Origin: Promethearchaeota archaeon
GTDB lineage: Archaea > Asgardarchaeota > Lokiarchaeia > Sigyniarchaeales > SOKP01
Assembly (NCBI GenBank): GCA_030606485.1
Contig: JAUWGH010000012.1
Coordinates: 1-32,000, forward strand
Direction: 5' to 3'
DNA: 32,000 bases
Positions 1-29,971 of this stretch are shown here, piece after piece. The notes under the pieces are model-generated. The model was not told the origin of the DNA, ran no database searches, and was given only the letters and a program-made list of their open reading frames with translations. The position numbers were made by a program, and so were the translations under genes. Positions within the stretch are counted from its first letter, which is position 1; every line of letters begins with the position of its first letter.

Positions 1-858
1 AAGCATGGAATAATTTCGCCTCAAATGAGATATGATAAAGCAGGGGATTTTTTCCGCTTATCAAAACTTAAAGAAAAGTATTATTTCTTTATATCATATT
101 ACAAGGATGTCGTTGCCGAAGATGTACTCTTATGGGAAAAAGATTCATTCATTTTACCAAAAAAATATAATAATAAGTTTGTACTTTTCCATAGAGTATT
201 ACCTGATATTCAAATTGTTTGTTTCGATGATTTTAAAGATTTGACAACCGATTTCTGGAAGGATTATCTAAAAACATTAGGAGATCATGTTGTAATAGAG
301 CCAAAATTTGGATATGAATCAAGAAATATCGGTGCTGGAGCACCATTAATAGAAACTGAAAGAGGTTGGCTCATGTTATATCATTCTGTAGAGGATTCTA
401 ATAAAGGTAAGGTGTATCACGCAAGTGCCGCCCTCCTTGATAAAAACAATCCGTTTAATGTAATAGGACGACTTAAAGAACCTCTTTTTTCGCCAATCGA
501 AGATTTTGAAAAAGTTGGAGATGTAAATAATGTTGTTTTCCCCACAGGCACCGCAATATTTGGAGAGAGATTATATATTTATTATGGTGCCGCTGATAAG
601 AGAATAGCCGTAGCATCGGTAAATCTACATAAACTTCTTCACGAACTCTTGGCGTCTGAAGTAGAAGTTGGGATTGGATTTTTAGCAGGACAGATTTATA
701 ATCTTACATTTAAAGAAGAACAAAGTTTAACTCACCTTAAGAATTTATTGCATCAAAACGAAAAAGTTTTACTGATGGCAATTGGTTGGCTAACAAGGGA
801 AAATAAAGTTCTGTGTAGATTTGATTTAGATGAATTATTCATTAGATCTTTAAGGTAA
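1..858 (+). CDS. GH130-like glycosidase/mannoside phosphorylase (5-bladed beta-propeller) with C-terminal DUF2582-like winged helix; 5'-partial
   Basis: Frame is open from base 1 (KHGIISPQ-MRY...), so the gene starts outside the window. GH130-type motifs: EKDSFILPKKYNNKFVLFHR, IGAGAPLIETERGWLMLYH, NNVVFPTG, LYIYYGAAD. Residues ~215-277 of the track ORF (IGFLAGQIYN...AIGWLTRENKV) match the DUF2582 wHTH pattern. Confidence 0.85.
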   Translation, partial: KHGIISPQMRYDKAGDFFRLSKLKEKYYFFISYYKDVVAEDVLLWEKDSFILPKKYNNKFVLFHRVLPDIQIVCFDDFKDLTTDFWKDYLKTLGDHVVIEPKFGYESRNIGAGAPLIETERGWLMLYHSVEDSNKGKVYHASAALLDKNNPFNVIGRLKEPLFSPIEDFEKVGDVNNVVFPTGTAIFGERLYIYYGAADKRIAVASVNLHKLLHELLASEVEVGIGFLAGQIYNLTFKEEQSLTHLKNLLHQNEKVLLMAIGWLTRENKVLCRFDLDELFIRSLR

Positions 859-1155
859 CTATTGACAAAAAATTATTTCAATTATCCAAAATCTTAAATT
901 TTTTAATATTTTAGTCTTTTCTTAAATTAATTTATCGAATTTCATATTATGGAGCTTTTTTTCTGTATTATTAAAGATCAGACGTTTAATGTCATTGTAT
1001 TCAAAGAAATTGAACCTTATCCAATAAGATTAGGAACGATACCACCTAAAAATTTAAAAGTGTCAAGATTATAAGATAATTGTCCTATTTCTAATGAAAA
1101 AAGTAAATCCCATTTTTTTTGCTAAGATAAATTCATTTTTTAATTGTGATTTAGA

Positions 1156-3357
1156 ATGGAATCTAATTGGATCCTTTATATGGCCACATATCCTCCCAGA
1201 GAGTGTGGTATTGCTACTTTTACAAAAGATTTAATGACAGCAATGGATAAGAAATTTTCTCCTTTTATAAAATCAAAAATCCTCGTTATTAATAATAATA
1301 ACGATATTGATTATGAAAATATTGAAGATGTTTTATTTGATATTGCTGATAATGATATTTCAGCATATATAAAGGCTGCGAAAAAAGTAAATGAGATAGA
1401 TGCTATAAAGCTGATAAATATACAACACGAATTTGGTATTTTTGGTGGAGAATATGGAAATTATTTAATAAAATTTCTAGAAATTGTAAAAAAACCAGTC
1501 GTTATATCATTCCATACGGTTATCCCAAATCCAGAGGATAAATTAAAGAAAATAGTTCGTGAGCTAGCAAAAAAATCTTCTTATTTAGTTGTTATGACTA
1601 ACAAGGGGATCGATATTTTAAGAAAAGATTATGATATTAAAAGAGAGATAATTGTAATACCTCATGGAACGCCAACAGTGTCATTTGATGAGAGTATAAA
1701 AGAAAAAACAGTAATGGGTATCGATGATAAAATTGTATTATCGTCTTTTGGCCTTATTAACTCCGGAAAAGGTTGTGAATATGTAATTGAGTCGTTAACT
1801 GAGGTTGTTAAAAAATATCCTAATATTTTATATTTAATAATTGGCGAAACACATCCCGAAGTAAGGAAAAAAGAAGGAGAAAAGTATAGAAATTTTCTCG
1901 AGGAAAAAGTGAAGACGTTTAACCTTGAAAAAAATGTAAAATTCTATAATAGGTATATGACGCTAGAAGAAATAGTAAAATTTCTACTAGCAACGGATAT
2001 CTATATTTCTTCAAATCTGGATCCTGATCAGATTGTTAGTGGCACTTTGGCGTACGCAATAGCCTGTGGTAGAGCGATAATCTCTACACCTTTCATTTAT
2101 GCTAAAGATATTATTACACCTGAAAGAGGTCTTTTAGTAAAATTTAGAGATCCTAATTCATATACTAATGCTCTAATAAAAATATTATCAAATCCCCTCT
2201 TAAAAGAAGAAATGGAAAGAAACAATTATTCATTTTCTAGGTGCATGATTTGGCCAAATGTAGCAATATCTTATTATAATGTTTTCAAGCGAGTTATTCC
2301 TGATTTAGAAAAATGTGAAATGTCATATCCAGAAATCAAGTTTGATCATATTATGAATCTTACGGATGATTTTGGAATATTACAATTTGCAAATTATGCA
2401 AAACCAGATAAATTATCTGGATATACTCTAGATGACAATGCTCGAGCCTTGTTAGCTTGTACGCTATATTATAAGTTATTTAAAGATAATACTAAATTGA
2501 AATTGATGAAAATTTATCTGAATTTTATAAAATATGTCCACAAAAATGAAAATAAGTTGTACAATTTTGTTAATTACAATAAGATTGTAAATCTCGAACA
2601 TTGGAGCGAGGACGCCCATGGAAGAGCAATGATGGCTCTTGGTTATTTAATTGCTACAAAAAATATCCCAATGGAATTAAGAGTAGAGGCAGAACTGATT
2701 TTTGAAGATGCGAAAAAAGCTGTAGACAAGATTAGATCTCCAAGAGCAATTTCGTTTATTTTGATTGGACTCTATTTCTATAATGTAATAAAAAATTCTG
2801 AAGTCATTAGAATTAGAAAATTAGGCGATTATCTAGCCCAGCTCTATAAGGATTGTAATACTGAGAAATGGAACTGGTTCGAAAATTACCTTACTTATTC
2901 AAATAGTAAATTGCCTGAGGCTCTTTTTTTTTGCTATAAAATAACTAAAGATGACAAATATTTAATAATTGCCAAAGAATCTTTAGACTTTCTTATTTCT
3001 ATTTCGTTTAAAGACGGAAAATTTGCTCCTATTGGTCAGAACGGATGGTATCATAAAAATGGCTATAATGCTAGTCATGATCAACAGCCAGTTGATGCTG
3101 CTTCAATGGTACAAACATTGAGCGTTGCATATGATACCACTAAAGACAATAGGTATATGAAACTTGCAATCGACACATTTAATTGGTTCTTTGGAAAAAA
3201 CTCTCTGAATCAAGAAGTTTATAACAATTTAACGGGTGGTTGCCACGATGGTATTGGAGAGCATTCTCTAAACATGAATCAAGGGGCTGAATCATCAATT
3301 TCTTATTTGCTTGCTAGACTTTCACTTCAAATATCAAAAGGTTCTATTGCTTTTTAG
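1156..3357 (+). CDS. GT4 glycosyltransferase fused to a C-terminal (alpha/alpha)6 six-hairpin glycosidase-like domain
   Basis: N-terminal GT-B motifs TYPPRECGIATFT, QHEFGIFGG, SGTLAYAIACG. C-terminal DDFGILQF...GYTLDDNARAL, WSEDAHGRA, DQQPVDA, GGCHDG, NMNQGAES are typical of this fused family. Confidence 0.88.
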   Translation: MESNWILYMATYPPRECGIATFTKDLMTAMDKKFSPFIKSKILVINNNNDIDYENIEDVLFDIADNDISAYIKAAKKVNEIDAIKLINIQHEFGIFGGEYGNYLIKFLEIVKKPVVISFHTVIPNPEDKLKKIVRELAKKSSYLVVMTNKGIDILRKDYDIKREIIVIPHGTPTVSFDESIKEKTVMGIDDKIVLSSFGLINSGKGCEYVIESLTEVVKKYPNILYLIIGETHPEVRKKEGEKYRNFLEEKVKTFNLEKNVKFYNRYMTLEEIVKFLLATDIYISSNLDPDQIVSGTLAYAIACGRAIISTPFIYAKDIITPERGLLVKFRDPNSYTNALIKILSNPLLKEEMERNNYSFSRCMIWPNVAISYYNVFKRVIPDLEKCEMSYPEIKFDHIMNLTDDFGILQFANYAKPDKLSGYTLDDNARALLACTLYYKLFKDNTKLKLMKIYLNFIKYVHKNENKLYNFVNYNKIVNLEHWSEDAHGRAMMALGYLIATKNIPMELRVEAELIFEDAKKAVDKIRSPRAISFILIGLYFYNVIKNSEVIRIRKLGDYLAQLYKDCNTEKWNWFENYLTYSNSKLPEALFFCYKITKDDKYLIIAKESLDFLISISFKDGKFAPIGQNGWYHKNGYNASHDQQPVDAASMVQTLSVAYDTTKDNRYMKLAIDTFNWFFGKNSLNQEVYNNLTGGCHDGIGEHSLNMNQGAESSISYLLARLSLQISKGSIAF

Positions 3358-4894: not shown

Positions 4895-5905
4895 TTATTC
4901 TTCATTTTTCTCTTCATGCCATCCCAGATCAGATAAAATATCTTTAAATTGTTCATTTTCTTCTATTTCAAATTCAGCATCGTACTCAGAAGCAAGATCA
5001 AATTCATTAAAACCTTGAGGGGGTTCAAAGCTCTGATAATTAAAGCTTTCTTCAGGAATCTTTTGTTCAATTTCAGGAACTGGTTCTGTAAGGGGCGCTT
5101 CTTCTGGAATTATTTCTTCTGATACAATTTCTTGTTCAATTTCCATAGGTGTATAATCATCAAGAGGAATTGGAGGCACTTCATCCCCATATACCTTAAT
5201 TCCATATAGTTCCTCAGATTCTCGTGCTTTATCGATGGCTTCTACTTTTTCTTCGGCAGTTATTGGAACTGTTTTTCCTTCTTCTGGGATTTTCATCATC
5301 ATAGACTGAGGAATGGAGACTATATTATTTTGAACTATTTCCTCCTCCTCTCCTTCAGCACCCCATGATTTTAAAAATTGTAGAGTCGCTTCTATTGCTT
5401 TTTGATCTTCTTTAGCAGATGGTTTTAATATTCCTACTCCCTTTTCTGCTTGTATTTTTTCCTTTTCTGCTTGCATTTTCATTAATTCTTCTTCTTCAAG
5501 ATTTATTGCCATTTCCGTTACTTCTCCACCTGAAATTAATTCATTAATTTTCCGGGCGATTTCTCTCAAATAACCCATATAATAACCGATTTTTAATACG
5601 TTCTCTAACGCTCCGAAAATAATATATTCATCATTTACAGCCATTAATATACCATAACCTTTCTCATTGTGGAGTAGGATTTCTCTTAAGGCTCCATGTT
5701 CTACAGATTGACTTAAACGAATTCCGAGATCGATTAAAGCTGTGCTTGATGCAGAAATTGCGTCTGCATCTAATTCGGCTGATTTTGCTGAAGCGACTTT
5801 CATTCCAATACGTGATAGTACAGATAACTGTTCAAGATCTGTTTTCTTCTCTTCTATTTGAAGGATTTCCATGAGTCTATTCTGAATTTGTGGAGAAATC
5901 GACAT
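4895..5905 (-). CDS. Roadblock/LC7 (MglB-like) domain protein with long acidic, probably disordered C-terminal tail
   Basis: Residues ~1-125 follow the roadblock pattern (VLSRIGMKVASA, DADAISASSTALIDLG, ILLHNEKGYGILMAVNDEYII, IGYYMGYLREIARKI); the remainder is Glu/Pro-rich. Confidence 0.78.
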   Translation of the reverse strand: MSISPQIQNRLMEILQIEEKKTDLEQLSVLSRIGMKVASAKSAELDADAISASSTALIDLGIRLSQSVEHGALREILLHNEKGYGILMAVNDEYIIFGALENVLKIGYYMGYLREIARKINELISGGEVTEMAINLEEEELMKMQAEKEKIQAEKGVGILKPSAKEDQKAIEATLQFLKSWGAEGEEEEIVQNNIVSIPQSMMMKIPEEGKTVPITAEEKVEAIDKARESEELYGIKVYGDEVPPIPLDDYTPMEIEQEIVSEEIIPEEAPLTEPVPEIEQKIPEESFNYQSFEPPQGFNEFDLASEYDAEFEIEENEQFKDILSDLGWHEEKNEE

Positions 5906-6742: not shown

Positions 6743-7732
6743 TTAAATTAAAATCATAATAAATGTTATAAATGTATAAATGCCATTAGCAGAAATAGTA
6801 GAAAATAGATTCCGATTGGATATTTCGAAAATTAAGCCTAAAATAACATTATTTAAGAAGTAAATAATAACTAAACCCATATCAAAAGTGAAAAATAAAA
6901 ATAAAACTGAATACATTAAACTTACGATTAAAATAATATATATTCTTTGTGTTAGTTGAGAACCAAGTTTTGTGATTAATCCATTGTATAAAACTCCACG
7001 GAATGTTATCTCTGTACCAAGAACATCCAACATTAATAAAGATAATATTAAGATCTTATATAAAAGAGAGGAGCTCCTTATAATTGTGTATTGTTCAGAT
7101 AAACTCTCTGGTGGAGCAAAAATAGTCCAACCTATTGATACAAAGAACTCATTGATAAAAAAAGAAAATTCAGCCATTATATAAACCATAAAGGCTCCAA
7201 TTATGCCAATTAATAATGCAATAAGTATTTTTTTTCTCTCATAATTTAATCCAAGTTTTGAAATTTTGTGTTTCTTCGAGTATATGTAAGACAACGGATA
7301 TATAATTAAGATTGCTCCGGGAATTTGACTTAATGTAATAGCTTCAATAGTAATTGGAAATTCAGTACCTGCAGAAGGTCCTTGAAGTATAAAAAAAAGC
7401 GTAATAATACCAATTTTTGCAAATAAAAACAAAACTAAACTATTAAAGAAGACATTTATTGCTTCACGAAATTTCCATTGATCCTTTTGAAGTATAAATT
7501 TATCAGAGAGCTCGAGTTTCTTTCCAGTGAATATTAAATATGATTTTTCTTTTTTTTTTCCCTCCTCCATTATATCAATTGGTAAATCCTCTAAAACCGT
7601 ATCACATATAGGACATTGTTTGAGGATTTTTGAGGAAATAATTGAGCCACATTTTGAACATTTTCTTTCAAGGGTTTTCCCTTTAGATGTAGTTAAGGTC
7701 TCTTTTTTTTCCTTGCTCTTCTCATCAGACAT
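6743..7732 (-). CDS. Zn-ribbon plus CPBP (CAAX protease/Abi) family membrane protein, catalytic motifs degenerate
   Basis: CSKC...CPIC at the N-terminus; multi-TM C-terminal region with TEITFRG (canonical EExxFRG) and SANGIYT (canonical HxxxN). Confidence 0.72.
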   Translation of the reverse strand: MSDEKSKEKKETLTTSKGKTLERKCSKCGSIISSKILKQCPICDTVLEDLPIDIMEEGKKKEKSYLIFTGKKLELSDKFILQKDQWKFREAINVFFNSLVLFLFAKIGIITLFFILQGPSAGTEFPITIEAITLSQIPGAILIIYPLSYIYSKKHKISKLGLNYERKKILIALLIGIIGAFMVYIMAEFSFFINEFFVSIGWTIFAPPESLSEQYTIIRSSSLLYKILILSLLMLDVLGTEITFRGVLYNGLITKLGSQLTQRIYIILIVSLMYSVLFLFFTFDMGLVIIYFLNNVILGLIFEISNRNLFSTISANGIYTFITFIMILI

Positions 7733-9691: not shown

Positions 9692-9844
9692 TTTAAGTCT
9701 CTTTATAATTTTATCTTCTTTTTTTAATATAATTAACTTAATCTTAAAAATAAAAAAGTAAATTAACCAAATAATAACTTTTTTTTTTGTATGTTATATG
9801 GGTATGATACAAAATTATATTTTTTTTTGTTATATATTTTCCAT

Positions 9845-10273
9845 GTGATATATCACATCATTTTATATGAAACTAATTCAGGTAAATTAATTTTAGATAT
9901 AGTTTTTAAAGAGATAATTGGAGATGATTCACTATTTACGGGATTCATTTCTGCTCTTAAAAGTTTTGGCGCAGATATCTTAAAAAATCAACCAAAAAAT
10001 ATCAATATGATTAAGTTTGATAATTTGATAATAAAAATCTTTACGATAGCAGAATTAAATATTGATGTAGTAATCCTCTTTGACCCAGAGCCAGAACATT
10101 ATAAAATTGTAAATGAAATACTTCCAAAAATAGAAACCATAATTTTTGAATATGAAACACTCTTTACCGAATGGAATGGCATGAATCTTAATGAATTTCA
10201 AATCTTGGCAGAACCGATTATCAATCTTATAAGAAAATCAATTTTTGCTGAAGCAATCGTTGGAGCACTCTAA
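9845..10273 (+). CDS. Longin/sedlin-like small domain protein (Asgard type)
   Basis: The ORF track starts at 9791, but an in-frame GTG at 9845 gives (M)IYHIILYETNSGKLIL...DDSLFTGFISALKSF, the beta-hairpin plus 'LxxGFxSALxxF' helix pattern of longin folds. The upstream 18 codons read like AT-rich intergenic DNA. Confidence 0.6.
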   Translation: MIYHIILYETNSGKLILDIVFKEIIGDDSLFTGFISALKSFGADILKNQPKNINMIKFDNLIIKIFTIAELNIDVVILFDPEPEHYKIVNEILPKIETIIFEYETLFTEWNGMNLNEFQILAEPIINLIRKSIFAEAIVGAL

Positions 10274-11433: not shown

Positions 11434-11563
11434 TTTTTTATTTGATTTAATTATTTTTCATGCGATTTAAAATCTTTTTTATTTGATGATGTTTTTTGGA
11501 TTAATTAAAGTTTAAAAAAGATAACACTAGTATTTATTATACATAATAAAAATATTTTGAAAT

Positions 11564-11625
11564 GGGAAAACAGAAAGATGGGACTAAAAAACAAATTATT
11601 TCCAAAAAAGGGAAAACAGAAAGAT
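11564..11625 (+). repeat. Exact 16-bp direct repeat GGGAAAACAGAAAGAT (11564-11579 and 11610-11625), period 46 bp
   Basis: Read directly from the sequence; the two copies flank the ESCRT-III start codon. Confidence 0.9.
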
Positions 11626-12210
11626 AAGACAATAGTGAACATTAAGAAGCAGATTCATCAATTAAAACTCAAATCTAAAGCACTAAATCAAAAATCTGAA
11701 TTATATCGAAAAAATGCTAAAATCGCATTAAAAAATGGAAATAAGGAAAGATCTAAGAATTATCTGGTCCAATGGAAATCCTATAGGAATAAAATTAATA
11801 GAAATACGAATTTATCGTCCAAACTTGAGAGATATATAGATGCAATCGAGGAAGGCAGACTTATCAAGGGTTTAGAATCAACTTTATCAGCCTCAACTGC
11901 TGCCTTAAAAGATTTAGCGGTAAGCGCAAGTCCAGAAAAAGTAGCTACACTTAGTGAGGAAAGTGAGGAATATATTGCAATGATTGAGGAATCAGGCGAA
12001 ATTCTTGCAGGAGACCCGGAAATTGACCAAGGAATTAATATTGATGATGAGTTTGAAAAATTAGAATCCGAGGTCTTACTTGAAGCAGCTGGTGAGATTC
12101 CAGAAATTCCAGTTGAAGAGGAGTTTCTTATAGATGAGATTCCTGAAATGGAAACCAAGGAAAAATTAAAGGACGAAATAGCTAAACTTAAAAAAGAATT
12201 AGAAGAATAA
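11578..12210 (+). CDS. ESCRT-III / Snf7-family protein, Vps20/32/60 (CHMP4-7)-like
   Basis: Basic N-terminal helical hairpin and acidic C-terminal half; MGLKNKLF N-terminal amphipathic helix; ALKNGNKERSKNYL (cf. A.K.G.K..A...L); IDDEFEKLESE; EIPEIP; terminal helix. ATG at 11578 is preferred over TTG at 11557. Confidence 0.85.
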   Translation: MGLKNKLFPKKGKQKDKTIVNIKKQIHQLKLKSKALNQKSELYRKNAKIALKNGNKERSKNYLVQWKSYRNKINRNTNLSSKLERYIDAIEEGRLIKGLESTLSASTAALKDLAVSASPEKVATLSEESEEYIAMIEESGEILAGDPEIDQGINIDDEFEKLESEVLLEAAGEIPEIPVEEEFLIDEIPEMETKEKLKDEIAKLKKELEE

Positions 12211-12305: not shown

Positions 12306-14162
12306 TTAAAAATCTGAAGAATATTTTTTAAAAGCATCTTCCTCATCAATTTCCATTTTCAAATCTTGAATTTTTCTCTCTATTACAAAAAGTTCTTGTT
12401 GATAGGATCTATACGTTCTAAAATAATCCACTTCTGAGATCTCTGACTTCTGAAACTTCCTCTCTAGATGTTTAAGAGTTTGACTTAAACTGAATTCTTC
12501 TTTCTCAAGTTCTAAAAGATGGGTTCTTTTATCAAAATCTGAGCGTTTATTATCTTCTTGGTACCCTCGCTGATTTAAATATAAATGTCCCCGATTTAAA
12601 AATCGTTGGTTTAACCTATTTGGGTTCGTTAAGTCCATGTTATTAAATTCAGGGTTGAAATAATTTTTTTGAACTTGATAAGGGTGTGCAGCAGCCGTAT
12701 TTTGATTGATAAAGTTATTAGGGTTGATATTTGGTGGATATTGAGGATTATATGGTCTTTGATAGTCCTCCAACTTTCTCATTAAAATATTGTTCTCATT
12801 AAAATGGAAATCATTTTGATTTCGATAATTTCTATTTGGCTGTGCGAATTGATTTCCCTGAAAATTATTTACATAGGGGTTATTATAATTTTGTCTCGGA
12901 TGATTATAATTATAATTTTCACCATAATTCATTTGATAATTCGGTAAATAATCTGGATTTTTACTGCATTTTAGATTTAACAGATATGAAATGTTCATTT
13001 CGATGAAATCAATTAAATCTTTTACATCTAATTTAAACATCATTAGAGATTTTGAGGATTCAATATCATATCTTTGATTTTCATCAAAAACTCTTGCATT
13101 CTCTATATATTCAATCACATCTTTTCTTTTTGATGAAGGTATTGAGAAGTAATATTTCCCATATACGAATTCCATATATAGTTTTTTTCTTACTGTCCCT
13201 GTAATTTGTATTCGCTTAAATTCCTCATGAGGAATTTTAAAAATAAACTCTACCCGCTTTTTTAATAATCCATATTCATGAATAAAATAAATGTAGAGAT
13301 TTGAAATTAATAGTGTCCCCCTTTCATTTGAATATTCATTTAAAGGATTAAACCCCTTTGCCAATTTGCACCGCACCGCATATAATGCCTTCTCATCCCT
13401 TGTAAATTCAATTATACTGTTAAATTTTTGAAAATTATTTCGAATATCTTCAAGGAATTTTATTTTAGCATCAATTTCTTGGATTTTATCACTGATTTTT
13501 TTAAGATTATTCTCAATAAAAATAGAAAGAGATTTGTGCTCATGATTAAGATTTTCCAAGATTCCAATGATGATAGGAATGTTTGTATTGGATTGTGTGG
13601 ATATATCGATGAAATAGTTCCTATTCATAAAAATATGGTCATATTCTCGTCTTATATTCTCATATACTTCTTTTTTCACATGAATAAAAAGCCTGTATAA
13701 TGTAATTAATTCTGCTTCTAAAGAAGGGAAATGATAGCATTTAAAGGGTGGTTCTCTAACTTTTTTTAGTTTATTTCGTAGTAAGCTTAACTTATTTATC
13801 AGCTCTCTAAAAGGAATAATAAAGGATCTTGTGTTTCTAATTAATTGAATATATTTTTCATTTATCTGCTTCTTTTTCTCAAATACTTTCACAATAAGGG
13901 AAGAATTGCATTTAGGGCATATTTTTACATTCTTATAAACTTTTGTAGTATTTTGACTAAAGCAGCTATCACATTTTAATATTCCTTCCTTATTTCTACT
14001 TATTTTTTCGGACCCACAATTACTACAGATTAAAAATTCAGTTTGTTTTTCTTTAATGCAGTCAGAGCAAAAACTAGAATGGCAACTTTCACAATAATAA
14101 TTTAAATGCATGCTTCTCTGACACATTGGACAAAGTTGTGTTTGTCTTTGTCGTTCTAACAT
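12306..14162 (-). CDS. Multidomain ESCRT-I-like protein: Cys-rich Zn region (B-box-like), coiled coil, PH/GRAM-like domain, N/Q/Y/P low-complexity region, C-terminal steadiness box (Vps23/TSG101-like)
   Basis: Six CxxC pairs in residues 11-85; GTLLISNLYIYF PH/GRAM motif; N/Q-rich residues 402-535; residues 550-600 align ungapped to the TSG101 SB as recalled; GAGGT 9 nt upstream of the ATG. Confidence 0.7.
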   Translation of the reverse strand: MLERQRQTQLCPMCQRSMHLNYYCESCHSSFCSDCIKEKQTEFLICSNCGSEKISRNKEGILKCDSCFSQNTTKVYKNVKICPKCNSSLIVKVFEKKKQINEKYIQLIRNTRSFIIPFRELINKLSLLRNKLKKVREPPFKCYHFPSLEAELITLYRLFIHVKKEVYENIRREYDHIFMNRNYFIDISTQSNTNIPIIIGILENLNHEHKSLSIFIENNLKKISDKIQEIDAKIKFLEDIRNNFQKFNSIIEFTRDEKALYAVRCKLAKGFNPLNEYSNERGTLLISNLYIYFIHEYGLLKKRVEFIFKIPHEEFKRIQITGTVRKKLYMEFVYGKYYFSIPSSKRKDVIEYIENARVFDENQRYDIESSKSLMMFKLDVKDLIDFIEMNISYLLNLKCSKNPDYLPNYQMNYGENYNYNHPRQNYNNPYVNNFQGNQFAQPNRNYRNQNDFHFNENNILMRKLEDYQRPYNPQYPPNINPNNFINQNTAAAHPYQVQKNYFNPEFNNMDLTNPNRLNQRFLNRGHLYLNQRGYQEDNKRSDFDKRTHLLELEKEEFSLSQTLKHLERKFQKSEISEVDYFRTYRSYQQELFVIERKIQDLKMEIDEEDAFKKYSSDF

Positions 14163-14297: not shown

Positions 14298-14591
14298 TTA
14301 TTTAATTATTTTAATTTTTTGACCTAATGCCTGACCTGGCAAACCAGCTTTTTTAAAATGGGCTAAAACTGCTCCATTATTTCCATGTGGTTTTGTTATT
14401 TTTCCTTTTAAGGATCTTCCTGCCGGCGAAATCCATTCTACTGTTCGACCTATTAATATAGATGCCTTACTTCGGGATTTTATAGCATCAAAATGTAAAA
14501 TACAATATTTTGGGTGAATTAAATGCCGACCTCTTTTATAATTGGCAATAGCTCCTTCCATTCCTAATAATTCCAGTTTGCTAATTGACAT
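14298..14591 (-). CDS. rpl35ae: 50S ribosomal protein L35Ae (eL33)
   Basis: GAIANYKRG, LIGRTVEWISPAGRSLKGKITKPHGNNGAVLAHF...GLPGQALG. Confidence 0.95.
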   Translation of the reverse strand: MSISKLELLGMEGAIANYKRGRHLIHPKYCILHFDAIKSRSKASILIGRTVEWISPAGRSLKGKITKPHGNNGAVLAHFKKAGLPGQALGQKIKIIK

Positions 14592-22984: not shown

Positions 22985-24055
22985 TTGAAATTATTTGTCA
23001 CTTTATCATATTTTCACAGTAAAATCGGTCCATATATATATTGTTCATTTCCAGAAAAAGCTTTAGATGCCCAATTAATGCGTAAAATTGCAAACCTTAT
23101 GGATCACCCACTTGATGAAGGCTTTTTTAATTATAATTTTGAAGATCTTAATTCTATGAATTATTATTTTGAAATTTACTCTGGTTGGGCGCGTGGTGGC
23201 AGACAAATGTTAATGTTATCCGTAATTGTAAATCAAATTGTTACTCAAGAGAGAGAAAAAAATGTTCTATCATGGTTTATTGAAATTATAGAAAAGTTAC
23301 AATCTAATGAAGAGGCCTATAAAGCATTCCATTTATATGAAAAACAAAAATATGATGAGAAAATTCAAAAAAATATTGAAGAAAATGAAAAATTAGTTAA
23401 GAGCTGGTTAAAAGAAATATATTGGGCATCATTAGAGGAATTTCGTGATAAGAGTGAAGAAGAAAAAATAGCATCTGTTTTTAAAGATAAAGAAATCTTT
23501 GATACTCATGAAAAGCTTTCTATAGGTGCTATTGCATATGATGATTTACAAAAATGGTTTAATGAAAATTTTAAACAATCATTGTTTGATGGCGTAATAA
23601 AAAAATTATTAGATAATCAATTTATTTTGTTAACCGAAATTATCTACGAACAACATATACTCCTTTTAAAAGAAGTTAAAGCTATAAGAATGCCACCAAA
23701 AAGTCTAATAGAGCATTTTGACGAAAGTCCAAAAATTAGTGATCTTGTTGTCCATAAGGTTAAAAAAGTTTTTGATAAATATATTCCAACTAAGGAAGAT
23801 TCATTTCAATTATTTCAATTTATTGCAGATCCTAAAATATACAATGTACTTTCAAAACTACGAACAGGTCCTATCTTAAAAAACACCCTACCTAATCTAA
23901 TTTCAGAAAATGCTTTTACTTCATTGCTTGAAATTCTCAAAATTTTGAAAAAACATGAAATTATTGATGAATTTAAATATAAAAGGGAAATTTTTGTTGT
24001 TTTAATAGCTGATATTCAAATTACTACATCCTTTCCTAAATATCTAAGAAAATAA
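22985..24055 (+). CDS. uDENN/longin-domain protein (NPRL2/folliculin-like N-terminus) with putative C-terminal winged helices
   Basis: TTG start; YFHSKIGPYIYCSFPE resembles NPRL2 FHPTLGPKITYQVPE; WARGGRQMLMLSVI resembles the FLCN/SMCR8 ARG motif; two helical wHTH-like segments follow. Confidence 0.65.
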   Translation: MKLFVTLSYFHSKIGPYIYCSFPEKALDAQLMRKIANLMDHPLDEGFFNYNFEDLNSMNYYFEIYSGWARGGRQMLMLSVIVNQIVTQEREKNVLSWFIEIIEKLQSNEEAYKAFHLYEKQKYDEKIQKNIEENEKLVKSWLKEIYWASLEEFRDKSEEEKIASVFKDKEIFDTHEKLSIGAIAYDDLQKWFNENFKQSLFDGVIKKLLDNQFILLTEIIYEQHILLLKEVKAIRMPPKSLIEHFDESPKISDLVVHKVKKVFDKYIPTKEDSFQLFQFIADPKIYNVLSKLRTGPILKNTLPNLISENAFTSLLEILKILKKHEIIDEFKYKREIFVVLIADIQITTSFPKYLRK

Positions 24056-29359: not shown

Positions 29360-29971
29360 ATGTTATTTTTTGATTTTGACCCGTTTGGTGGTTTTATAAT
29401 GGCATTTAGTGACGTTATAGATATGATAATAAACATTTATATCATAATTCTGCCGTACATGAAAAATATATTTGCGACTATTTTTCTAATAATGGGAATC
29501 TTATTGATTTATAAGATCTTTTTCAAAAGGAGAAAGAATGTAAAAATTAAAACCGGATATTATCAACCTATTATTCCAGAGACTTTATTAGGTATTTTTT
29601 ATATAATACTTGCATGGGGATTATATTTTGATTTTATCTTAATGTTAATTATTAATATAAGTGAATTAGCTCCTCCACCCTTGATATTTTATATTATTGA
29701 ATCGCTTGGATATTCTGGATTTGCTGATATATTTGTCCCTCTAACTTCAGAATGGCAGAATTTAAATAATCTCCAGCTGCTGGGCATGTTATTTATTGGA
29801 ACTATATCTATTTTAGGTTTTATTTTATTAATTTATGGAATTCTAGTATTTATCAATAAGGATCTTAAGGGAAAGAAGAATAGTTTTGGTTCGATAATTG
29901 GAGGTTTTGCAATTATTTTAATTTTGGGTTTATCTCCAGGAGCTTCTCTATTATTAATAAACTCAATATAA
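29360..29971 (+). CDS. Hypothetical integral membrane protein (about 4-5 TM)
   Basis: 203-aa ORF with several long hydrophobic stretches; no family recognised. Confidence 0.6.
   Translation: MLFFDFDPFGGFIMAFSDVIDMIINIYIIILPYMKNIFATIFLIMGILLIYKIFFKRRKNVKIKTGYYQPIIPETLLGIFYIILAWGLYFDFILMLIINISELAPPPLIFYIIESLGYSGFADIFVPLTSEWQNLNNLQLLGMLFIGTISILGFILLIYGILVFINKDLKGKKNSFGSIIGGFAIILILGLSPGASLLLINSI

Follow-up and report, generated by a model that had tools for sequence, protein, structure and literature searches.

The last 79 residues of a 618-residue protein from a Promethearchaeota archaeon (Asgardarchaeota; Lokiarchaeia; Sigyniarchaeales; SOKP01) very probably form a genuine steadiness box (SB) on a member of the Znr_CC_PH_SB family, the SB being the helical hairpin of ~60 residues that serves as the building unit of the headpiece of ESCRT-I (ESCRT, the endosomal sorting complex that is required for transport). 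The gene lies in a stretch of 32,000 nucleotides (the window; contig JAUWGH010000012.1 of assembly GCA_030606485.1, positions 1 to 32,000 of the forward strand, G+C ~29%), where an open reading frame (ORF), whose product is labelled P0001, occupies positions 12306-14162 on the minus strand. We also consider the fuller explanation likely, namely that the SB of this Znr_CC_PH_SB protein docks on the N-terminal hairpin of Vps28 (Vps28-N). The protein family, its SB included, has been known since 2024, and the finding confirms an existing annotation; what appear to be additions are the predicted docking on Vps28 and the pairing with an ESCRT-IIIB gene across the phylum, neither of which is spelled out in the portions of the family's description drawn on here (Makarova et al. 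2024, mBio, PMC10936438). The gene and the hairpin are placed as follows.

Window 12306-14162, minus strand: whole gene, Znr_CC_PH_SB family protein P0001, 618 aa (ORF, homologues and the published family cog.011556).
Window 12309-12545, minus strand: steadiness-box helical hairpin, residues 540-618, the flagged feature (AlphaFold2, hhalign, Foldseek and sub-threshold Vps23_core).
Window 12351-12521, minus strand: conserved SB core, about residues 548-604, part of the hairpin.

A preliminary description of the window, made from its letters, had singled out 12360-12515 as an SB that aligns without gaps to TSG101/Vps23. The peptide that it meant, residues 550-599, stands, with a true span of 12366-12515, whereas the start at 12360 takes in two codons too many. 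The human TSG101 string that it had quoted is letter-perfect and equals residues 22-71 of PDB 6vme chain B (E 1.3e-27), and a recount returned the same 10 identities in 50 gapless positions, at the places that it had listed. Fixed-register shuffles (n = 100,000) gave P = 0.0023 for the identities and P = 3e-5 (3 in 100,000 shuffles) for the BLOSUM62 score of 31 versus a mean of −36, values that hold for one fixed register and partner and are uncorrected for choosing either. The same gapless register was obtained from HMMER alignments chained via yeast Vps23 (PDB 2f66_A): with the family profile and the TSG101 peptide each aligned to 2f66_A, P0001 residue 550 falls opposite position 1 of the peptide.

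The SB identification rests on sequence profiles; the fold is compatible with an SB yet not diagnostic of one. In a direct search, Vps23_core (Pfam PF09454) was the sole ESCRT family matched, with P0001 residues 548-594 aligned in the right register to profile positions 12-58 and E-values of 0.12 for the full protein and 0.006 for its C-terminus; 16 of 18 family members match Vps23_core, below threshold (best E 1.1e-4), and the flagged region is the strongest Vps23_core match in a six-frame search of the organism's own genome. A profile of the family C-terminus (A2, 18 sequences) was then compared by HMMER with 1.84 billion (1.84e9) representative proteins and returned 116 matches with E ≤ 1e-3, and nearly all of these lie at the extreme C-terminus; the 71 matches of at least 200 aa include 15 with Vps23_core (best 1.4e-7), 12 with UQ_con and 8 with UEV. 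One A2 match, P0108, combines UQ_con/UEV with a Vps23_core score that, at 28.6 bits, exceeds the 26.8 cut-off, and another, P0102, carries a UEV domain at 40.5 bits. Searched back against the organism's complete genome in six frames, P0108 found the flagged region as its top match (C11:12357-12524, E 6.8e-7, 36% identity). Alignment of A2 by hhalign to the SBs of five UEV-bearing proteins gave a probability of 98.4% and an E-value of 8.4e-15 over 58 gapless columns, and a G-x-I-S/D loop in a gapless register is common to Vps23, TSG101 and the Znr_CC_PH_SB family. In a profile search of the PDB, A2 aligned without gaps to the yeast Vps23 core 2f66_A (E 0.021) and also matched Vps28-N (E 0.06); in the organism's own genome it detects the Vps28 N-terminal hairpin at E 9.3e-5, as would be expected of a domain from the paralogous SB set. 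This profile evidence shows the hairpin to be homologous to the SB that Asgard UEV-Vps23 proteins carry and, via them, to Pfam Vps23_core.

Several results weigh against an SB. Direct Vps23_core scores are 12.8 bits for the full-length protein and 17 bits for the C-terminus, versus a Pfam gathering score of 26.8; the generic coiled-coil family APG6_N has a slightly better score than Vps23_core; in the A2 search of the PDB, the coiled coils of Get1 and tektin (E 0.016) rank beside Vps23, and human TSG101 is absent among the matches at E ≤ 10; and the SB follows a disordered linker, unlike the SB of Vps23, which continues a long stalk helix. The sub-threshold direct matches and the company of Get1 and tektin, together with family members that match APG6_N (17/18), CdvA (5/18) and SHOCT (4/18) and a structure-only search that is flat over hundreds of hairpins, would suit a generic antiparallel coiled-coil hairpin (SHOCT-, CdvA- or APG6-like) that resembles TSG101 through its heptad composition and has no specific ESCRT-I role. 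We nevertheless regard such a hairpin as highly improbable, given the hhalign link to SBs on UEV proteins, the reciprocal genome-wide best match from a protein that itself passes the Vps23_core cut-off, the loop and register shared across Vps23, TSG101 and the family, the first place of ESCRT-I chains among the 350,542 chains searched with Foldseek, and the conserved ESCRT-IIIB gene linkage described below. Likeness to CdvA is no contradiction to an SB if CdvA is itself homologous to the SB, as has been proposed (10.1101/2023.07.25.550441).

Individual families were considered for the hairpin as well. A SHOCT identity (PF09851) was rejected, as the best match among the four members has E 0.0098 and P0001 itself is unmatched, and the APG6_N, CdvA and prefoldin readings were dropped because their matches are weaker or generic. 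The Vps37 family Mod_r (PF07200) is matched neither by P0001 at E ≤ 1 nor by its C-terminus at E ≤ 10, and an NCBIfam scan of whole P0001 gave nothing relevant. The preliminary description had also held that the protein has no UEV domain, in agreement with a Pfam scan that finds no UEV or UQ_con match in P0001 at E ≤ 1.

Structurally, the AlphaFold2 (AF2) model of full-length P0001 (mean predicted local distance difference test score, pLDDT, 75.8) places helices at residues 534-571 and 577-617 around a loop at 572-576, and the SB folded alone (79 aa) gives helices at its positions 2-32 and 38-78 with a loop between them (pLDDT 93.6). The preliminary description had called for a structure prediction of the hairpin, and what is predicted is a helix-loop-helix, not one long coiled coil. 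Foldseek, whose scoring combines 3Di with sequence, returned ESCRT-I headpiece chains as 12 of the 13 best matches to the SB among 350,542 PDB chains, led by 2f6m_C, 2f66_A, 2p22_B and 6vme_B (yeast Vps23-C, Vps28-N, human TSG101), with superpositions on ESCRT-I hairpins at a root-mean-square deviation (rmsd) of 0.5-0.9 Å and TMt up to 0.91. The E-values are no better than 0.05-0.4, as is to be expected of a short helical query. Two points from a structure-only search run without Foldseek count on the other side: it is non-discriminating, with 279 chains at Z ≥ 8, and its ESCRT-I chain 6vme_C stands at rank 46 (Z 9.4) below top rows tied at Z 9.4-10.9, the first being CdvA (S. islandicus filament 9s9g_A, Z 10.9, rmsd 0.7 Å over 73 residues). 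This search argues neither for nor against SB identity. Taken with the significant profile links to UEV-Vps23 SBs, the helix-loop-helix model agrees with the ESCRT-I headpiece hairpin that had been proposed from the letters; the outcome that the preliminary description had named as fatal, no SB or Vps23_core match together with a plain coiled coil, was not found.

Second in the structure-only list is Prometheoarchaeum OST1, with its solved cytosolic domain (8whn, Z 10.7, 20% identity). In the organism's own genome, at G000:C2:250946-251137 (locus L014, ORF 1495-3192, minus strand), the terminal cytosolic hairpin of a ribophorin I (OST1) homologue (Pfam Ribophorin_I E 9.6e-13) gives a weak SB profile match (E 0.01). 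The resemblance between OST1 and the SB may be merely a common hairpin geometry.

The protein as a whole corresponds to a family that has already been described. Makarova et al. (PMC10936438) define the Asgard-specific Znr_CC_PH_SB (in the text, Znr_PH_CC_SB; asCOG cog.011556) by its three Zn ribbons together with a PH domain, a coiled coil and an SB, and describe it as a family that eukaryotes lack, that is probably ancestral in Asgardarchaeota and that forms "a likely ESCRT-I component" whose PH domain is expected to be membrane associated; the supplementary table of that paper places a member from Lokiarchaeum sp. GC14_75 directly downstream of ribosomal protein L35Ae. The same cog.011556 was taken as a 'Steadiness/Vps23 box' asCOG by Lu et al. 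(10.1101/2023.07.25.550441). P0001 has three N-terminal Zn ribbons, a coiled coil followed by a PH domain, a C-terminal SB and an L35Ae gene directly upstream (window 14298-14591), and its family assignment follows the published description and table. As far as that description and table go, P0001 shares with the family an identical domain set and order, a Lokiarchaeia lineage and the L35Ae neighbour, and differs in nothing of kind: it has 618 aa versus about 650 aa in GC14_75, with a shorter variant of the N/Q/P/Y-rich linker. We found 22 full-length homologues, every one from Promethearchaeota/Loki-type assemblies. The LCGC14 marine sediment metagenome is the source of homologue P0019 (E 9.4e-89). 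One point tells against our explanation: the literature searched yielded no experimental work on any Znr_CC_PH_SB member.

Upstream of the SB, the protein divides into four regions.

Window 13887-14141, minus strand: three Zn ribbons, residues 8-92, with six CxxC pairs and 12 Cys (AF2 beta hairpins, pLDDT 84-91; weak Pfam matches).
Window 13425-13886, minus strand: helical (coiled-coil/bundle) region, residues 93-246 (AF2, pLDDT about 86-95).
Window 13077-13400, minus strand: PH/GRAM(GLUE)-like beta-sandwich with a C-terminal helix, residues about 255-362 (AF2, pLDDT 81-93).
Window 12546-12959, minus strand: disordered N/Q/P/Y-rich linker, residues 402-539, 138 residues (pLDDT <50).

The Zn-ribbon cysteines (residues 11/14, 24/27, 32/35, 46/49, 64/67 and 82/85) are invariant across 18 homologues, and the region gives weak Pfam matches to zinc-ribbon, L37ae and B-box families. 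In the AF2 model, the helical region comprises helices at 93-114, 116-136, 148-179 and 192-246, the PH-like domain has strands over 258-340 and a capping helix at 343-362, and two or three more helices run to residue 399. Foldseek matches of the PH-like domain include Lam6 PH-like, Sec3 PH, the Vps36 GLUE domain 2cay (TMt 0.54, rmsd 4.5 Å) and BBS5, and relatives such as P0054 exceed the Pfam bPH_3/GRAM cut-offs. The linker, in which N, Q, P or Y make up 56.5% of residues, contains a single YPPNI, and a P[ST]xP motif is absent; its length and sequence differ widely between homologues. For residues 93-362 together, Foldseek places DH-PH RhoGEFs first (E about 3e-6 to 1e-5), yet at TM 0.15-0.36 and an rmsd of about 20 Å with no DH signature; this identity was rejected, and the resemblance is probably a superficial coincidence of helices followed by a PH domain.

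Functionally, the leading proposal for the SB is that it binds Vps28. The organism's own genome encodes a single Vps28 of full length (215 aa; G000:C2:179359-180006), which matches Pfam VPS28 at E 2.9e-13 and lies among ribosomal and SecY genes. The predicted complex between Vps28(1-100) and the SB scored 0.74 versus 0.02 for the best of three controls, a mark that 58 of 80 solved complexes and 2 of 110 mismatched pairs attained. Contacts are 100% the same over the three runs, the partner is modelled at pLDDT ≥ 85, and the predicted interface joins Vps28 residues 8-41 to SB helix 2 (P0001 residues about 577-596, with the near-invariant Y592, plus 570). Against this must be set that the docking is a model by itself and that its pass may reflect likeness to known structures, because ESCRT-I headpieces have already been solved. 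With that reserve, we favour docking on Vps28 as the main role of the SB. The SB would then lie side by side with the N-terminal hairpin of the organism's own Vps28 to form an ESCRT-I-like headpiece, while the C-terminal domain of Vps28 would link onward to the ESCRT-II proteins Vps22/Vps25 and to ESCRT-III/Vps4. At the other end of P0001, the complex would be directed to membrane or cargo, the PH-like domain providing for targeting to the membrane and the Zn ribbons for targeting to a protein ligand that might be ubiquitin or a different ESCRT part, with the long flexible linker letting the headpiece reach out from the membrane-bound module.

A true SB might instead serve mainly in homo-oligomerisation, or in pairing with another SB protein, and so cluster Zn-ribbon/PH modules on the membrane; candidate partners are two SB-like proteins of this genome, of 418 and 484 aa, and ESCRT-II proteins that carry an SB. 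In favour, the organism's own genome encodes more SB-like hairpins at protein C-termini (C8:373791-373976, E 1.6e-6, and C10:144092-144271, E 1.9e-4); headpieces are three-hairpin assemblies, and an Odinarchaeal Vps23 dimer binds one Vps28 (PMC9192718); SB-like parts occur on Asgard versions of Vps22 and Vps25 (PMC10936438); and a free-standing Lokiarchaeal SB protein interacts with Vps22 in yeast two-hybrid. Still, Vps28-N, the sole pairing predicted, passed clearly, and oligomerisation is itself compatible with Vps28 binding; as the principal function of the SB, we think it unlikely. The two additional SB-like proteins (locus L011, 418 aa, on C8; locus L013, 484 aa, on C10) are without Pfam domains and are candidate extra ESCRT-I adaptors, a kind reported to be diverse in Lokiarchaeia.

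No UEV-SB Vps23 was detected in the organism's own genome, for which marker genes indicate 100% completeness. UEV-like domains were found there on a 563-aa protein without an SB (C12:167880-168149; locus L008, ORF 103-1794, minus strand; UQ_con E 5.1e-9, RWD-like, with a Zn-finger/Cys-rich C-terminus), and a 170-aa frame on C10 gives a weaker E2-like match. UEV-like and SB modules appear to lie on separate proteins in this genome, and other Loki-type genomes may be without a UEV-SB Vps23 too. Tentatively, and with more doubt than belief, P0001 could be the Vps23-equivalent core of a UEV-less ESCRT-I that merges ESCRT-I with Vps36-like ESCRT-II functions and is coupled to ESCRT-IIIB; its PH/GLUE-like domain would read the membrane, and its Zn ribbons would perhaps read ubiquitin or Vps28-C. 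If this were true, coupling to ESCRT-IIIB without a UEV could amount to a short-cut from cargo/membrane recognition to filament nucleation.

Evolutionarily, P0001 is not a Vps23 orthologue. With Vps23/TSG101 and the Asgard UEV-Vps23 proteins (asCOG005829/007313), it shares a homologous C-terminal SB and predicted packing on Vps28-N, but it is without a UEV domain, a PTAP-type motif and a stalk helix that runs on into the SB. In place of the UEV stand Zn ribbons and a PH-like domain; its N-terminus is modelled as Zn-ribbon beta hairpins, and its long helices precede the PH domain. Eukaryotic Vps36 of ESCRT-II offers a second comparison, by virtue of a PH/GRAM-like membrane-binding fold combined with small Zn-binding modules (2cay being among the Foldseek matches), and the relative P0054 gives a weak Vps36_ESCRT-II match (E 0.023). 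Unlike Vps36, however, P0001 is without a winged-helix ESCRT-II core, has Zn ribbons that are N-terminal and not inserted in the PH domain, and carries an ESCRT-I SB instead. The cell-division protein CdvA of Thermoproteota resembles P0001 in a helical hairpin proposed to be SB-homologous and in weak Pfam CdvA matches, whereas P0001 is without a PRC-barrel and an ESCRT-III-binding E3B tail, its CdvA score is below cut-off, and the structural Z is tied with those of many unrelated hairpins.

The gene of P0001 also has a conserved ESCRT neighbour.

Window 11557-12210, plus strand: convergent ESCRT-IIIB (Vps20/32/60-class Snf7) gene (Pfam Snf7 E 3.9e-13), the conserved partner.

Its top PDB match is 9fn1_U, annotated 'Vps20/32/60-like protein (ESCRT-III)' (E 2.2e-53). 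The ORF opens at TTG 11557, with an ATG at 11578; because 9fn1_U aligns from residue 8, the ATG at 11578 is probably the start. The stop codons of the two genes are 95 bp apart. Only two Snf7 genes are found in the organism's own genome, and the second, of ESCRT-IIIA class, sits in a Snf7-Vps4-Vps25...Vps22 cluster on contig C1. A convergent Snf7 gene adjoins the family gene in all four homologue contigs with a readable downstream gene, and in a fifth it is two genes away. On a wider scale, ESCRT-IIIB and family genes adjoin each other at 28 of the 30 loci that belong to the same GTDB family. Six other GTDB families supplied 12 evaluable loci, and at 9 of them the adjacency is immediate, with a further one of the 12 having a Snf7 fragment adjacent and the full gene about 2 kb on. 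L35Ae is still adjacent in just one of those 12. The ESCRT-IIIB/SB-protein pair outlasts the surrounding synteny, in related genomes that are not independent. Counting against our explanation, the neighbouring Snf7 gene is convergent and is not co-transcribed with the gene of P0001. At one of the nine loci, in a distant genome (locus L063, G006:C2, 7377-8242, minus strand), the adjacent Snf7 gene is read as two overlapping frames, which a frameshift or an error in the assembly could explain.

The full-length family profile detects the gene in 211 of the 301 genomes sampled from the phylum, and among the 90 of high quality 72 have it; some GTDB families are without the gene, one of them in 0 of 28 genomes. 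Elsewhere in the window, Pfam leaves five ORFs, 160-356 aa in length, unmatched at E ≤ 0.001 (4895-5905, minus; 6743-7732, minus; 9791-10273, plus; 22985-24055, plus; 29360-29971, plus).

ESCRT-I is a eukaryote-signature machine that has been traced to Asgard archaea, and how its headpiece is built there without Vps37, and in some lineages also without UEV-Vps23, is a question in the origin of membrane trafficking. Znr_CC_PH_SB is a published Asgard-specific family that has been proposed to fill part of that gap. For this family, the predicted docking on Vps28 and the pairing with ESCRT-IIIB provide concrete and cheap binding experiments.

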